DNA from: an uncultured bacterium | GTDB lineage: Bacteria; RBG-13-61-14; CAYWKU01 | Assembly (NCBI GenBank): GCA_964459325.1 | Contig: CAYWKU010000007.1 | Coordinates: 83,422-147,421, forward strand | Direction: 5' to 3' | Length of the DNA stretch: 64,000 nt | Shown here: positions 996 to 18,445 of the stretch, in pieces | How positions within the stretch are numbered: position 1 is the first letter of the stretch | Layout of the letters: every line of letters begins with the position of its first letter | Position numbers and translations under genes: made by a program | The notes under the pieces: generated by a model | The model's database searches: none | Told to the model about the DNA's origin: nothing | Seen by the model: only the letters and a program-made list of their open reading frames with translations

Positions 996-2536
996 ATACC
1001 GAATCGCCCAATCCCCACGAGCACGTAAAAAGGTTCCGTGATTATGACCGGGATATGAAAGACAGTTGCGATTTCCTTATCGTCGGCTCCGGTCCCGCCG
1101 GCTCGGTGGCGGTTAAAGAGCTTTCGGAAGCGGGATACGACGTGGTGTTGCTGGAGGAAGGTCATCCCGTGGGGCCGGAGGATTTCGTCAGGGAAGGCTC
1201 CCGCTCCATGATGAGGCTGATGAAGGAAGCCGGCGTGCGCTCCACCCTGGGAAACATCGCCATGCCCACTATGCAGGCGATTTGCCTGGGAGGCGGTTCC
1301 CTCATCAACAGCGCCATTTGCATACGGGCGCCCGAGTTCGTGTTCGAAAGATGGCGCAAAGAATGCGGCATCGAATGGGCGAGCCGGGCCGAGCTGGACC
1401 CTCACTACGATAAAATCGCGGAATACTGGGGAGTTCAGCCCACCCCGGAAGACGTGCAGGGCCGCCGCAATCTCCTGTTCAAAGAAGCATGCGACAACCT
1501 GGGCATCGAAAGCCACCCCAACGACCGGAACGTGCAGGGGTGCAAGGCTTGCGCCGAATGCTTCACCGGTTGCCCCACCCGCGCCAAAAAGAGCACCGAC
1601 GTGGTGTTCATACCCGACGCCATACGCAACGGCGCCCGCGTCTATGCCAACATGCGGGCGGAAAAGCTGATAATAGAAGGTAACCGCGTGGCCGGAATAC
1701 ATGCCCGCGCGGCGGATAACTGGACAAAGCGCACCGGCCACTCGCTCGAAGTGCGTGCCAAATGCACCATCCTCGCCGCCGGGGTCGTTGGAACTCCCAC
1801 GTTGTTGCAGAAAAACGGCAATGCCGCCAACTCCTCCGGTTGGGTGGGCAAAAACCTCGTATTCCATCCCGGCGGGGCTATTATGGGAATTTTCGACGAG
1901 GAGGTCAACCCGTGGGACGGGGCGACTCAGGGGTACTCCTCCATCGAGTACCTCGAGCAGGGCTTCAAGCTGGAATCGTTGTGGGCGCCGCCGGCGGTGC
2001 TGGCCGTCAGGTTTCCCGACTTCGGCTATGACTTCAAATCCCACATAGCCAAGTACAAGCACATGGCGCCCTGGGTGGCGGTGATAAGCGGGCAGTCGCA
2101 GGGCCAGGTGCGCGCCCGAAAGAGAGGCTGGGACCCGCTGCTCAAATATAACCAGAGCCAGGAGGATGCTAATAGAATCAGGGAAGGCCTGTCCAAGGTG
2201 GCGCAGCTTTTCGAAGCCGCCGGGGCTCATTCGATGCTGCCCGGAGTGCACGGGCTGCCCACCGTCATGAAAACCGAAGGCGCTCCGAAAAAGATACTGG
2301 AAACAAAGTTGAAGCCGGCGGACATGGTCAGCGCCGCCAGCCACGTCTTCGGCACTACCAAAATGGGCGCCGACCCATCGAACAGCGTGGTGGACCCTTC
2401 GGGTAAAACTCACGACCTCGACGACCTGTACATAGTGGACACCGGCATCATGCCCATCTGCACCAGCGTTAACCCCATGTTCACCATCATGGCCATAAGC
2501 GATAAGATATGCCGGGGACTCAGGGAAAGATATTAA
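992..2536 (+). CDS. GMC-family FAD-dependent oxidoreductase (choline dehydrogenase-like)
   Basis: N-terminal Rossmann FAD motif DFLIVGSGPAGSVAVKELSEAGYDVVLLEEG; C-terminal GMC signature region (HVFGTTKMGADPSNSVVDPSGKTHDLDDLYIVDTGIMP); 514 aa. Confidence 0.85.
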   Translation: MNTESPNPHEHVKRFRDYDRDMKDSCDFLIVGSGPAGSVAVKELSEAGYDVVLLEEGHPVGPEDFVREGSRSMMRLMKEAGVRSTLGNIAMPTMQAICLGGGSLINSAICIRAPEFVFERWRKECGIEWASRAELDPHYDKIAEYWGVQPTPEDVQGRRNLLFKEACDNLGIESHPNDRNVQGCKACAECFTGCPTRAKKSTDVVFIPDAIRNGARVYANMRAEKLIIEGNRVAGIHARAADNWTKRTGHSLEVRAKCTILAAGVVGTPTLLQKNGNAANSSGWVGKNLVFHPGGAIMGIFDEEVNPWDGATQGYSSIEYLEQGFKLESLWAPPAVLAVRFPDFGYDFKSHIAKYKHMAPWVAVISGQSQGQVRARKRGWDPLLKYNQSQEDANRIREGLSKVAQLFEAAGAHSMLPGVHGLPTVMKTEGAPKKILETKLKPADMVSAASHVFGTTKMGADPSNSVVDPSGKTHDLDDLYIVDTGIMPICTSVNPMFTIMAISDKICRGLRERY

Positions 2537-8949: not shown

Positions 8950-9123
8950 ATTCCTTGCCTACAACCTCCCCACTCTTTAGGCTAATCATTTTATCCTGTA
9001 TTTTCAATGAAATTCCACAAAGTTGAGGAATATTCTACAGTCTTACTACAGCTTGTGTTGACATCCATCGGCCATCGATTACCCTAACCGCGACTTAACA
9101 AATCCGGCAGGGAGAGATTCATA

Positions 9124-10410
9124 ATGGAGTTGGAAAAAGCCATAGAGTTTCCTAAGGATTTCCTCTGGGGCGCCGCCGCCTGCGCTCACCAGGTGGAAGG
9201 CGACAACTTTTACAACGACTGGTGGGAATGGGAGCAGCAACCCGACAGCATCAAAAACGGCGACCGCTCCGGCAAGGCCTGCAACCACTACGAGCTGTTT
9301 GAAACCGACTTCCGCCTGCTCAAAGAAATGGGCGCCAACGCCCACCGGCTGGGCATCGAATGGAGCCGCATCTACCCTGAAGTGGACCGTCTCGACCCCA
9401 AAGCCGTCGACCATTACAAGAAGGTGCTCGAGACAGCGCGGGAAGCGGGCCTGGAGGTATTCGCCACCGCTCACCACTTCACAAGCCCCGCCTGGTTCGC
9501 GAAAAAGAACGGTTTCCTCGTCGAAAAAAACCTCGATTACTTCAAAAGGTACATCGAGCTTATCGCGAAGGAGCTGTCGCCTTACGTCACATACTGGAAC
9601 ACCATCAACGAGCCGGCGGTCTACGCCGTAATGGGCTGGATGGCGGGCGAATTCCCGCCCGGCCACCAGGACGTGGGCGACGCGGTGGACGTGCTCCGAA
9701 ACATCATACTCGCTCACGCAGCCGCATACCAGGGCCTCAAGGAATACTCCCCCAACGACGTAAAGGTGGGCATCGTCAAAAACATACCCCATTTCATACC
9801 CATGGACCCCGACGACCGGATGGACGTGGAAATGGCCGCCAGCCAGGACAAGTTCTTCAACGAATACCACCTGCACGGCATCGAGACCGGCGTGCTGCAA
9901 CTGGGCAAGGAAGAGGAGTTCCCCGAGCTGAAAGGCTCCACCGACTTCTTCGGACTGAACTACTACATGAAAATGATATGCGACAACGACCGCCCCATGG
10001 GCCCGATGACCGCACTGCCCGACGATAAAAAGACCCAGATGGGATGGGCGGTGCACCCGGACGGACTTTACGAGAGCATCATGAGGCTCAAAAAATACGG
10101 CCTGCCCATCTACATCACCGAAAACGGCATCGCCACCGACGACGACGCTTGGAGGGTCGAGTACATTACGCAGCATTTGCAGAAAACAAGGCAGGCCATG
10201 GACGACGGCGCGGACGTGAGGGGCTACTTCTACTGGTCGAACCTGGACAATTTCGAGTGGGCACAAGGATGGGAGCCGCGCTTCGGGCTTATCTCCTTCG
10301 ACCCCGAAACCTTCGAGCGCAAAATCAAGCCTTCCGGCCAATTCTACGGCGAATGCGCTCAAGCGGGCGCGGTAACGCCGGAACTGGTGGAAAAGTACTC
10401 CGAGGGTTAA
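9124..10410 (+). CDS. Glycoside hydrolase family 1 beta-glucosidase
   Basis: GH1 N-terminal signature FLWGAAACAHQVEGD, acid/base NEP motif (TYWNTINEP), nucleophile ITENG motif; 428 aa. Confidence 0.9.
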   Translation: MELEKAIEFPKDFLWGAAACAHQVEGDNFYNDWWEWEQQPDSIKNGDRSGKACNHYELFETDFRLLKEMGANAHRLGIEWSRIYPEVDRLDPKAVDHYKKVLETAREAGLEVFATAHHFTSPAWFAKKNGFLVEKNLDYFKRYIELIAKELSPYVTYWNTINEPAVYAVMGWMAGEFPPGHQDVGDAVDVLRNIILAHAAAYQGLKEYSPNDVKVGIVKNIPHFIPMDPDDRMDVEMAASQDKFFNEYHLHGIETGVLQLGKEEEFPELKGSTDFFGLNYYMKMICDNDRPMGPMTALPDDKKTQMGWAVHPDGLYESIMRLKKYGLPIYITENGIATDDDAWRVEYITQHLQKTRQAMDDGADVRGYFYWSNLDNFEWAQGWEPRFGLISFDPETFERKIKPSGQFYGECAQAGAVTPELVEKYSEG

Positions 10411-10536
10411 GAAAAAAGCCCGGACAAGCCGGTCATCGGTCATTTCTCCCTCCGGATAGTATCTGCGAGTCAGGACATTATCCATTTAACCGTAACAGAT
10501 TACAACAGTATACCTCGCCCTGCTCGAAAGATACCG

Positions 10537-10862
10537 GGTACCCCACCTTGCACGCAGTGCGAGGTGGGTAGCGAAGCTACAGGGAAATGTGGTATGAAGG
10601 ATTGCGGATTATCAATCGAGCAGTCTGCTATTTAATGAAGAGGGGAAAGGCGCCGGGGTATCGGTTTCGAAGCCGTCAATATTCCCTGCCCGTCCGGGCC
10701 CACCTGGAACCTTCGGGTCAAGGTGGGGTACCCGGTATCCCCGGGTTAAAACCCGGGGCTTAAAGATAAATGTGAAACTCCCCGGCTTAAAAGCCGGGGT
10801 TTCCGAGGGGTGAGCAAAATTGATAGCCCACACAACTTGCTTGTGTGGGTGAGCGAAGCTCA
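10537..10862. repeat. Cluster of stable stem-loops in a convergent intergenic spacer, including two copies of a hairpin-plus-GCGAAGC mini-hairpin unit and three GC-stem/TTAAAA-loop hairpins
   Basis: Unit 1 at 10537-10580 (ccaccttgcacgcagtgcgaggtgg + gtagcGAAgctac); unit 2 at 10827-10862 (cccacacaaCTTGCttgtgtggg + tgagcGAAgctca); between them ccccgggTTAAAAcccgggg and ccccggcTTAAAAgccgggg. Confidence 0.6.
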
Positions 10863-11040
10863 CGGGAGACAATTCCCTCCTGCGCCTTCGGCGCCGGGCT
10901 TACGCTTACGCTTTAAGCCCGGCTACCCGCTATCGAGCACACCATAATGTGTTCAAGCCATGACAAATTTTATACTTTGCGCCTTTGCGTGATGCTTCAA
11001 ATGACTTGGGTTGGGGTTGCATTTTGCTACGGTTTGGGGG

Positions 11041-11139
11041 TGTAGAATTCGAGGGTCGATTTTCTACAACATTTTCTACAGAATTGTAGAATATTCTACA
11101 ACGTTGTAGGATATTCTACAGGTGACAATTTTCGTCACC
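11041..11139. promoter_or_regulatory. Array of TTCTACA-containing palindromes (operator- or iteron-like), including an 18-bp perfect palindrome
   Basis: At least seven TTCTACA/TGTAGAA half-sites within ~80 bp; perfect palindrome TTGTAGAATATTCTACAA (11084-11101), near-palindrome TTGTAGGATATTCTACAG (11104-11121), inverted repeat GGTGACaattttcGTCACC (11121-11139). A related GGAATATTCTACAG copy lies at 9026-9039 upstream of the GH1 gene. Confidence 0.5.
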
Positions 11140-11193
11140 CGAAGCGTCGAACACCGGCGTGTATTCCACGAGCAGGGGATGAAAAAGAGGGGC

Positions 11194-12210
11194 TCAGACG
11201 GTCACCCTGCCCGCCTTTTCGGCCCGGTACCATTCTATAAGTGAAGGCAGGCCCTCCTTGATAGTCGGGTACCTCAACGGACCCGGCATGCGCGATTTCA
11301 TCCGCACGTTGGAGTAGACCAGGTCGGAGTGGGCGATGTCCAGCATCCCCCCTATGCCGAAGGGGAATCCCAGAAGGTCGCTGACCGCGTCCACCGGCAC
11401 AGCCAGCGTTTTCAAGAGAAACCGGGGCATGGAGCGGATTTTGAGCACTATCCCCAACTGCTGCGCGATGCGCTCCAGAAAATTCTTCACCGTTATCCGG
11501 TTGTCGTCCACCGCGTGGATTACCTTGGCGTGAGCCTTGGGGTCGTAACCGGCGCAAACCAGCAGGCGCGCCAGGTCTTCTGCGTGAACCAGCGGTATGA
11601 TTTTATCTCCCTTGCCCACGAACGGAAGGCCCAGCTTGCCGTACTTGTCCATGAAATCTATCAAGCCCTTGAGGTGGACGCTGTGAGGGCCGTATACCAG
11701 CGCGGGGCGGATGATGGCGTAGTCCAGGCCGTCTTCCAGGTGAGCCGCCCGCATTATCTGCTCGGACTTGTACTTGTAGGTGGTGTAGAGGTCGTGGAGC
11801 TTTTTAGACGGTGGAGTTTCTTCGGTGGCGGGGAATTCCGAAGGTATACCCGCCACGGATATGCTGGAGAGCAGCACCAGGCGCTTTCTGTGTTGATGCA
11901 ATGCCCTTCCGACCAGTCGCCGCACCAGCTCCATGTTGTGTTTAATGGCCCACTTGGTAGTGTTGGGCAACTCTCCCGCGTGGTAGATGACATCCACGCC
12001 GGCACAGGCTTCCTCCACCCTGACCAGGTCCCGAAGGTCGCCGTGAAATATTTCGACGCCCCGCTTTTTCCACGCGGCGGCCTTTTCGGGAGTGCGCACG
12101 AAAGCCCTTACCGGCACTTCGGCCCTGATAAGCTGCTCCACCAGGTGGGAGCCGATGAAACCGGTGGCGCCGGTTACGAGTACGGGATTTTTCTGCTGCT
12201 CGGATTCCAT
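11194..12210 (-). CDS. NAD(P)-dependent epimerase/dehydratase family protein (SDR superfamily)
   Basis: N-terminal Rossmann motif VLVTGATGFIGSHLVEQL; 338 aa typical of extended SDRs. Confidence 0.8.
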   Translation of the reverse strand: MESEQQKNPVLVTGATGFIGSHLVEQLIRAEVPVRAFVRTPEKAAAWKKRGVEIFHGDLRDLVRVEEACAGVDVIYHAGELPNTTKWAIKHNMELVRRLVGRALHQHRKRLVLLSSISVAGIPSEFPATEETPPSKKLHDLYTTYKYKSEQIMRAAHLEDGLDYAIIRPALVYGPHSVHLKGLIDFMDKYGKLGLPFVGKGDKIIPLVHAEDLARLLVCAGYDPKAHAKVIHAVDDNRITVKNFLERIAQQLGIVLKIRSMPRFLLKTLAVPVDAVSDLLGFPFGIGGMLDIAHSDLVYSNVRMKSRMPGPLRYPTIKEGLPSLIEWYRAEKAGRVTV

Positions 12211-17999: not shown

Positions 18000-18224
18000 T
18001 TATTTTTTCCATTCCTTTTGAGGAATTTCGGCGTTAACCAGGATGTTGCGCAATGTTCCGAGAGGAAGGTTGCGTCCCTTATGATACGGCACGATAACCT
18101 GTAACCCTGATTGAGAATGTCGCCACTTCCGATGACTTCCTTTTTGCGATATCATTTTAAAACCGTATTTTGACAGCAGAGATTCTACTTCTTTGGCCGT
18201 CATCCTTCTTATGCCGGAGCTCAT
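18000..18224 (-). CDS. hicA: Type II toxin-antitoxin system toxin, HicA family
   Basis: 74 aa; KGSHRKWRHSQSGLQVIVPYHKGRNLPLGTLRNIL matches the HicA fold signature; overlaps the upstream antitoxin gene by 4 nt. Confidence 0.8.
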   Translation of the reverse strand: MSSGIRRMTAKEVESLLSKYGFKMISQKGSHRKWRHSQSGLQVIVPYHKGRNLPLGTLRNILVNAEIPQKEWKK

Positions 18225-18445
18225 CCAATGACGACCTCACACGTAATCGCGTCATCACTTAACTCCAGGGGAGAAGGTTCCAGATATAATGCAATTGCTT
18301 CTTTTATATTTTCCAGAGCCTCCTCTTTGCTTTCTCCCGCCGAAATACATCCCGGCAATTCCGGGCACCATACCGCCCATTCCCCTGTTTCGCTATCCCG
18401 CTCCAATATAACTCGCCATTTCATTCTCCCATTCCTGCCTTTCAT
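18221..18445 (-). CDS. hicB: Type II toxin-antitoxin system antitoxin, HicB family (UPF0150)
   Basis: 74 aa; WAVWCPELPGCISAGESKEEALENIKEAIALYLE is characteristic of HicB/UPF0150; the real start may be the internal Met (MKWRVIL) at about 18424. Confidence 0.75.
   Translation of the reverse strand: MKGRNGRMKWRVILERDSETGEWAVWCPELPGCISAGESKEEALENIKEAIALYLEPSPLELSDDAITCEVVIG

Follow-up and report, generated by a model that had tools for sequence, protein, structure and literature searches.

What fills the gap between two convergent genes? A 783-bp spacer of an uncultured bacterium as a probable mosaic of palindromic repeats

Why should two genes that run toward each other be separated by 783 bp of DNA crowded with hairpins? 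This question is raised by positions 10411-11193 of a 64-kb stretch of contig CAYWKU010000007.1 from an uncultured bacterium, which was analyzed here over its full length of 64,000 nucleotides and is called the window. On this spacer converge a GH1 gene (PF00232, 9124-10410, plus strand) and a gene for an NAD-dependent epimerase (PF01370, 11194-12210, minus strand). An earlier note on the same DNA had described a convergent spacer that lacks a credible open reading frame (ORF), and it had offered a structured non-coding RNA (ncRNA), stacked terminators or repeat elements as explanations. With a probability of about 80%, we conclude that the spacer is a mosaic of at least three independent palindromic repeat families, similar to the bacterial interspersed mosaic elements (BIMEs), and that a distinct heptad array adjoins this mosaic at the epimerase end. 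The earlier description of coordinates, flanking genes and coding content was correct: the longest ORFs of the spacer comprise 86 and 30 amino acids, and neither of them has a Pfam hit or a visible ribosome-binding site.

When the whole spacer was folded as RNA, we obtained z-scores of -7.7 for the plus strand and -9.4 for the minus strand relative to dinucleotide shuffles. After GC correction it was the most structured of the 162 tiles of 783 nucleotides across the window (z -4.4/-3.3). At least five strong hairpins had been claimed, and this count was exceeded: at least seven are individually significant, and the z-scores of these seven ranged from -3.0 to -8.2 when they were folded as single-stranded DNA (ssDNA). 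Three features had escaped the earlier note, namely a 21-bp inverted repeat, a CCCAC...GTGGG hairpin at 10699-10727 and a seven-heptad TTCTACA array. Most importantly, three parts of the spacer belong to palindromic repeat families that are present at other, unrelated loci, so that of the explanations offered before, repeat elements held up. The repeats are arranged as follows.

10530-10739, unstranded: doublet of family-1 palindromes, GGGTACCCCACCTT-loop-AAGGTGGGGTACCC, with TA on each side of the CCGGG...CCCGG core; the outer arms are the 21-bp inverted repeat
10536-10568, unstranded: family-1 copy 1, 5' arm intact, local hairpin CCCACCTTGCAC-GCA-GTGCGAGGTGGG (ssDNA z -3.0, folded together with the mini-hairpin)
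10569-10579, unstranded: GCGAAGC mini-hairpin TAGCGAAGCTA of composite unit 1, recognized from the sequence and by local repeat comparison
10696-10734, unstranded: family-1 copy 2, 3' arm intact, local hairpin CCCACCTGGAACC-TTC-GGGTCAAGGTGGG (ssDNA z -3.6)
10736-10803, plus strand: family-2 half-unit consisting of outer hairpin CCCCGGGTTAAAACCCGGGG, linker CTTAAAGATAAA, TGTGAAACT, inner hairpin CCCCGGCTTAAAAGCCGGGG and TTTC (85.1 bits with covariance model R1)
10826-10866, unstranded: composite unit 2, hairpin CCCACACAA-CTTGC-TTGTGTGGG plus mini-hairpin TGAGCGAAGCTCA, paralogue of 10540-10582 (z -3.8)
10877-10932, unstranded: family-3 two-hairpin unit, GCGCC-TTC-GGCGC, then CCGGGCTTA-CGCTTACGCTT-TAAGCCCGG, then CTACCCGCTA (ssDNA z -4.7)

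Family 2 is represented in the spacer by two hairpins with TTAAAA loops and 8-bp stems (10739-10758 and 10780-10799). Three such hairpins had been reported before; these two carry the loop as stated, but the third GC-rich one (10893-10923) has a CGCTTACGCTT loop. From a comparison of the window with L036, the contig of a GH1 relative, we derived the search pattern TGTGAANCTCCCCGN{8,12}CGGGGTTTC, which has 22 fixed bases. Here, we found 85 instances in 62 metagenome loci, and the estimated number of chance matches was below one. Most of these copies carry a second, outer hairpin 12-13 nt upstream, exactly as in the window, and the half-unit reads outer hairpin, CTTAAAG-type linker, TGTGAA, inner hairpin and TTTC. 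In the richest sample (Ga0209777) two half-units in inverted orientation make up the full element, which thus contains four hairpins, plus further conserved flanks. In the metagenome loci there are 18 full inverted doublets, the inner spans of which vary between 76 and 175 nt with a variable centre. Window 10736-10803 is the solo half of such a four-hairpin element, which resembles a REPIN, a hairpin-forming doublet of repetitive extragenic palindromic (REP) sequences.

For a covariance model (R1) we aligned 61 distinct metagenome half-units and left the window out. This model recognized the window copy with 85.1 bits (E 2.5e-19) and the two copies of L036 with 77 and 74 bits. The outer helix lies outside the search pattern and hence allows an unbiased test of covariation. 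Double-sided changes were observed at five of its eight pairs, and 99.6% of the cells were paired; among 488 cells there were three G-U pairs and two non-pairs. RNA tolerates wobble pairs, and this pairing confined to Watson-Crick pairs therefore suggests that the palindromes are kept as DNA hairpins. Family-2 copies are almost all intergenic (27 between tandem, 8 between convergent and 3 between divergent genes), and the asymmetric full elements show no orientation bias relative to co-directional genes (5 vs. 4).

One metagenome locus, L050, links family 2 to a transposase. There, a 149-aa Y1_Tnp gene (1073-1522, minus strand) has R1 matches on both sides (801-1068 and 1550-1727), which are complete family-2 doublets. 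The transposase probes employed served as bait only; the single hit was verified independently by Pfam (PF01797, E 1.7e-28) and by the NCBIfam model for IS200/IS605 (104.6 bits vs. a cutoff of 55). A Y1 transposase gene flanked by repeats is the organization described for systems of REPINs and REP-associated tyrosine transposases (RAYTs) (Bertels & Rainey 2011, PMC3116915; PMC3337134). Family 2 is thus presumably mobilized by a Y1 transposase. Short palindromic non-autonomous repeats of the REP/REPIN-like or IS200/IS605-derived kind would accumulate in a permissive site between convergent genes. Y1 (HUH) transposases would recognize hairpins in ssDNA and copy or move them without long terminal repeats, and the copies would survive where promoters and coding sequence are left undisturbed, that is, mostly at gene 3' ends. 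If the spacer is transcribed as a 3' untranslated region, its GC-rich stems would probably form barriers to exonucleases or read-through on the mRNAs of GH1 and the epimerase; judging from the REPs of enterobacteria, they may protect mRNA 3' ends or take part in termination. The window encodes LptF/G and therefore the source organism is an uncultivated diderm bacterium. For the repeat family in such poorly studied, uncultivated diderm bacteria, R1 and the candidate transposase of L050 can be used as tools, and the link between palindromic repeats and Y1 transposases is extended beyond Pseudomonas and enterobacteria.

The variable centres of some family-2 doublets (L097:1966-2075, L062:5860-5915, L063:7166-7245) consist of tandem half-hairpin repeats of about 16 nt, GCGGGGTTTCNAAAGT-like, in variable number, a pattern suggestive of slippage at the inner hairpin or of repeated, abortive copying there. 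One flank, GCATATTTTGAAAATGTTAGAGACGAATTCTAACATT, is conserved at L080:1388-1440 and at seven other loci; it holds a small hairpin and an outward-facing promoter-like sequence, TTGAAA-N17-TAACAT. Another group of pattern hits (L046, L056, L057, L066, L074, L079, L092) reads TGTGAAGCT-CCCCGCCC-ACAG-GGCGGGG-TTTCCCGG and has a conserved tail of about 90 nt that ends in a GC hairpin. The members of this group have no outer hairpin and no Rfam match, and they probably constitute a related but distinct repeat or RNA family. The TTGTGAA motif of family 2 was considered as a Rex/CRP half-site, but this was dismissed since paired half-sites are 80-170 nt apart.

Family 1 provides the 21-bp inverted repeat (10530-10550/10719-10739), which is perfect, encloses 168 nt, and is the only pair of arms with 100% complementarity of this kind in the window. 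In addition, both long arms have a shortened partner close by with which they can pair (10542-10568 and 10699-10727). L089 and L099 contain the 14-mer of the arm core, GGGTACCCCACCTT, in a plain hairpin of 33 bp whose loop measures 3 nt, and L061 contains it in a split form with a 30-nt insert; about 0.005 matches are expected by chance in the 727 kb of related loci. In L099 (2346-2378) and L089 (12062-12094) the palindrome lies inside long ORFs, which encode a MutS2 protein (MutS_V and Smr domains, 855 aa) and a UvrD-like helicase (750 aa), respectively. It is read there in different frames, as GYPTFNEGGVP and GTPPSVKVEYP.

The same inverted repeat raises the possibility that 10530-10739 (210 bp) is a miniature inverted-repeat transposable element (MITE) with terminal inverted repeats (TIRs), for instance an IS630/Tc1-like one with TA target duplication that is mobilized by a DDE transposase. 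The perfect 21-bp termini, TA on both sides of the CCGGG...CCCGG core, a length of about 200 bp, which is typical of MITEs, and the presence of an unrelated 280-bp palindromic MITE in two copies in relatives are all consistent with this idea. However, the flanking TA belongs to an extended palindrome, so that a target duplication cannot be read from it, and no other full-length copies were found. Exact matches of the 21-mer were absent from the viral and metagenome collections, the 168-nt interior had no match in the 727 kb of related loci, and both results therefore weigh against a multi-copy element of the TIR type. Moreover, at other loci the arm core forms just a 33-bp hairpin, and the apparent TIRs are therefore better read as arms of a small palindrome or doublet. 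We consider a TIR-type MITE unlikely; the 210-bp segment is most plausibly a pair of family-1 palindromes with outer arms that are perfectly complementary by coincidence.

Family 3 was identified by two inverted copies in L039 (around 9359 and 9652), which share the loop and the flanks with the window unit and carry compensatory changes in both stems. Next to it lies the second copy of a composite, which consists of a CCCAC...GTGGG hairpin and a GCGAAGC mini-hairpin and was found only as two local paralogues (10540-10582 and 10826-10866). The sequence GCGAAGC alone is not rare, since it occurs 15 times on both strands of the window. Two composite units with a CTTGC loop had been described before. 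This applies to the second (10829-10851), but in the first (10542-10568) CTTGC is part of the stem and the loop is GCA. Since there is an overlap between the first composite copy and family-1 copy 1, the composite may have arisen locally from the family-1 palindrome.

Relatives of both flanking proteins were found in metagenomes and their contigs were compared with the window; among the GTDB species representatives, no GH1 relative exceeded 42% identity and none was syntenic. In the contig with the closest epimerase (L031, 90% identical) the only spacer feature between the epimerase stop and a co-directional PilZ gene is the heptad array, and L032 (86%) has a different palindromic element of about 280 bp in this place. 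Four contigs with GH1 relatives of 84-66% identity (L035 with 84%, L037, L038, L039) continue downstream of the gene with sequence unrelated to the spacer. Only L036 (GH1 78% identical) shares anything with it, namely two family-2 half-units directly after the GH1 stop, in a different arrangement. The contexts of GH1 and epimerase differ in every relative, so that no orthologous spacer alignment is possible. The comparison with relatives proposed in the earlier note showed no syntenic conservation of the spacer, and compensatory stem changes were found in families 2 and 3. Beyond the relatives, blastn of the spacer against plasmids gave no match, and no further copies of spacer elements were detected within the window.

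These comparisons bear on the proposal that a single long structured ncRNA of about 200-550 nt extends across the spacer, in one version running leftward from a promoter at the heptad array to a hairpin followed by T6 at 10415-10436. The predicted structure is indeed very strong on both strands and includes a 21-bp closing helix around a multi-branched domain of 210 nt. In L031 the array lies upstream of a co-directional gene and may thus mark a leftward promoter, and at the far end of the spacer the minus strand offers a weak hairpin with T6. The covariance-model scan suggested before was negative, with no Rfam match at gathering thresholds in the whole window or in eight related loci. In a permissive scan of the region the best match was an ncRNA, HgcC, but it reached only 19.1 bits vs. 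a gathering score of 50 (E 0.069). ARAGORN detected no tRNA or tmRNA genes in the window. Neither the closest relatives of GH1 nor those of the epimerase have the region, it is composed of independent repeat families that occur at unrelated loci in both orientations, and the stems are perfect Watson-Crick helices without an excess of G-U pairs. In addition, a perfect 21-bp duplex is atypical for functional bacterial RNAs, and the promoter-like sites are weak. We therefore regard an unannotated structured ncRNA as highly improbable. The apparent RNA candidate resolves into known biology, and a false ncRNA annotation is averted.

Two smaller hairpins near the ends of the spacer bear on the stacked terminators proposed before.

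10415-10436, minus strand: CCGG-CTTGT-CCGG, a weak hairpin with a 4-bp stem and T6 behind it on the minus strand, read from the sequence (dG about -5.5 kcal/mol; below the criteria of the terminator scan)
11121-11139, minus strand: GGTGAC-N7-GTCACC, a hairpin without a T tract, downstream of the epimerase stop by about 55 nt (dG -8.7/-10.6)

Locally evolved, stacked bidirectional terminators would suit a site on which GH1 and the epimerase gene converge. The stems have a high GC content and can fold on either strand, and in two orthologous contexts GH1 is closely followed by family-2 units that carry compensatory stem changes. However, a terminator scan of 10300-11300 yielded no site with a stem followed by a T tract, while 1.4 were expected; the 4-bp stem with T6 at 10415-10436 came closest. 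Furthermore, not just the structures but the same sequences recur at dozens of unrelated loci, including sites beside a transposase gene and inside ORFs. A co-opted role as terminator or stabilizer is compatible with a mosaic of repeats and does not provide an alternative origin. Local evolution of the hairpins as terminators is thus improbable. On a smaller scale, the hairpin at 10415-10436 might weakly terminate transcripts running leftward across the spacer, although this assignment is uncertain, and the one at 11121-11139 may form the 3' end of the epimerase mRNA.

Several observations weigh against a mosaic of mobile repeats. The transposase of L050 originates from an organism other than that of the window, and with 32.4 bits on the NCBIfam model REP_Tyr_transpos it stays below the cutoff of 80 for RAYTs. 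The 64-kb window encodes no Y1 transposase. The R1 scan revealed no second family-2 copy in the window and, apart from L036, none in about 75 kb from the closest relatives, and therefore the high copy number of family 2 is shown for other genomes and not for this one. No further copy of the GCGAAGC composite was found in the approximately 727 kb of related loci, and the unmatched interior of the family-1 doublet belongs to the same side of the balance. Finally, both GH1 orthologues that have family-2 units carry them just downstream of GH1, with compensatory stem changes, and this placement could reflect a conserved local function rather than purely selfish spread. Such retention downstream of two diverged orthologues hints that the window copy may have been co-opted.

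Compared with known systems, the mosaic of repeats shares a number of properties with REP/REPIN-RAYT systems and BIMEs. Its units are short GC-rich extragenic palindromes that are depleted between divergent genes, and, as in BIMEs, several unit types are clustered in one spacer. The units often form inverted doublets that fold into a long hairpin, for which the family-1 doublet of the window with its perfect 21-bp outer helix is an example, and in L050 the Y1 gene lies between repeats, with neither long TIRs nor an obvious target duplication. Unlike REPs, family 2 has no conserved GTAG head: in the alignment of the 61 half-units no conserved GTAG was present next to either stem. Each of its units comprises two hairpins, and four hairpins make up the full element, together with a variable and sometimes tandemly repeated centre and extra conserved flanks. 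The transposase of L050 scores as IS200/IS605 and not as a curated RAYT, the window copy is a solo half-unit, and high copy numbers were seen only in other, uncultivated genomes.

IS200/IS605-derived palindrome-associated transposable elements (PATEs) are similar in that subterminal hairpins are presumably read as ssDNA by a Y1 TnpA, in that a TnpA of the IS200 family is adjacent, and in an apparent lack of TIRs and target duplication. In contrast to PATEs, the gene in L050 is flanked by complete doublets on each side and not by one left-end and one right-end hairpin. Rickettsia palindromic elements resemble family 1, the palindromes of which lie in frame inside the MutS2 and UvrD-like helicase genes in two reading frames, and the whole family-1 element can fold as one long hairpin, as MITEs of the Correia type or the enterobacterial repetitive intergenic consensus (ERIC) type do. 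Unlike these three groups, the family-1 unit is much shorter (33 bp) and shows no sequence similarity to them, and neither a TA duplication nor an IHF site was demonstrated for it. The kind of element is thus well known, but the particular families, the doublet architecture with four hairpins and the partner from the IS200 clade appear to be undescribed in Rfam. Repeats of this kind are useful as markers for strain typing and as landmarks of genome plasticity.

The epimerase end of the spacer is different in nature and is related to a second site upstream of GH1.

11041-11120, unstranded: seven TWTYCTACA/TGTAGRAWA heptads in both orientations, found by repeat analysis and conserved in L031
9024-9039, unstranded: TGAGGAATATTCTACA, which nearly repeats the 16-bp heptad dyad; TTGACA follows about 20 nt and the GH1 start codon 85 nt downstream

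The array includes a perfect 18-bp palindrome, TTGTAGAATATTCTACAA (11084-11101), and, at a distance of 20 bp, another dyad. Seven heptads in 80 bp compare with a background of 0.13 per kb in 800 kb of related DNA, and the array is conserved directly after the epimerase stop in L031, save for a 32-nt expansion in the window. When up to three mismatches were allowed, the heptad dyad had three matches in the window vs. 0.03 expected. Within 9024-9063, in the divergent promoter region of the GH1 and C11-peptidase genes, a further TTACTACAG unit lies upstream of TTGACA, and in L035 a related dyad is located upstream of a gene for a sigma-54 activator. Judged from these sequences, the array looks like a putative protein-binding site of some kind, most likely the multi-site operator of a dimeric DNA-binding protein, which would also act at the GH1 promoter. 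The heptad operators of ribbon-helix-helix proteins, such as omega of pSM19035, are comparable in having 7-bp direct and inverted units, here at spacings of about 10, 12 and 20 bp, and, as with phased palindromic operators too, a related site lies in a nearby promoter. Unlike these operators, the array has a different heptad sequence and lies downstream of a gene, not in a demonstrated promoter, so that there is resemblance only. The array provides a lead to a putative transcription factor regulon that would include a beta-glucosidase gene.

Alternatively, the array might act at the level of the chromosome, as a replication terminus, a dif site or a cluster of DnaA boxes. Genes converge on the spacer, being mostly on the plus strand to its left and almost all on the minus strand from 11.2 to 56.3 kb, that is, for 45 kb to its right. 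With about 43% GC, the flanking stretch 10930-11040 is comparatively rich in AT, and TTTTCTACA agrees at 8 of 9 positions with TTWTNCACA, the relaxed consensus of the DnaA box. However, convergent orientation is the opposite of what is expected of an origin. The cumulative GC skew is flat from 1 to 22 kb, without an extremum at 11 kb, and the skew is negative only beyond about 22 kb of the window. The array does not resemble ATAATGTATATTATGT, the conserved core of dif. In L031 the conserved array is located between co-directional genes, and in the window the promoter region of GH1 contains the second, similar dyad. Readings as oriC, terminus or dif are made unlikely by gene orientation, by GC skew and by the context in L031, and the chance that the array is a chromosome-level site is negligible compared with a gene-level operator.

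A more far-reaching proposal combines the repeat mosaic with the putative operator. Family 2 would represent a new class of REPIN-like elements with four hairpins, present in sediment bacteria that are uncultivated, with a partner transposase from the IS200 clade in a RAYT-like organization, variable tandem-repeat centres and an outward promoter-like flank. The half-unit of the window would be domesticated and would have been kept downstream of GH1 by compensatory changes through 22% protein divergence, while the TTCTACA array and its copy at the GH1 promoter would define the regulon of a repressor. As a whole we consider this combination doubtful. If it is true, the domesticated half-unit implies a function for the host, e.g., protection of mRNA 3' ends.

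The palindromes of this region also matter for sequence assembly. Logan assemblies of SRR7048220 carry the same organism, and one contig (L001) ends at window position 10796, inside the second TTAAAA hairpin, whereas another (L030) ends at 11080, inside the heptad array. These breaks of short-read assemblies inside the spacer are likely an effect of the palindromes.

The element of about 280 bp (TGAAAATCCGGA...TCCGGATTTTCA) that follows the epimerase in L032 (7190-7484), where it ends the contig, is palindromic and MITE-like. A second copy from the same sample is located upstream of GH1 in L035 (5690-5975), so that at least two copies are present in metagenome JGI 3300033153. The gene neighbourhood of the GH1 orthologues (66-84% identity; L035, L036, L037, L038, L039) is completely different in every contig. 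It follows that GH1, or else the genomes in which it lies, must be mobile or have undergone much rearrangement.

Elsewhere in the window, the GC content falls to 0.45-0.49 at 54-62 kb, and this stretch may mark an acquired island. A pair of genes for a HicA toxin and a HicB antitoxin (18000-18445, minus strand), the stop and start codons of which overlap, lies within a stretch that lacks a long ORF, and this pair shows synteny to the HicB/HicA genes with which L031 begins.

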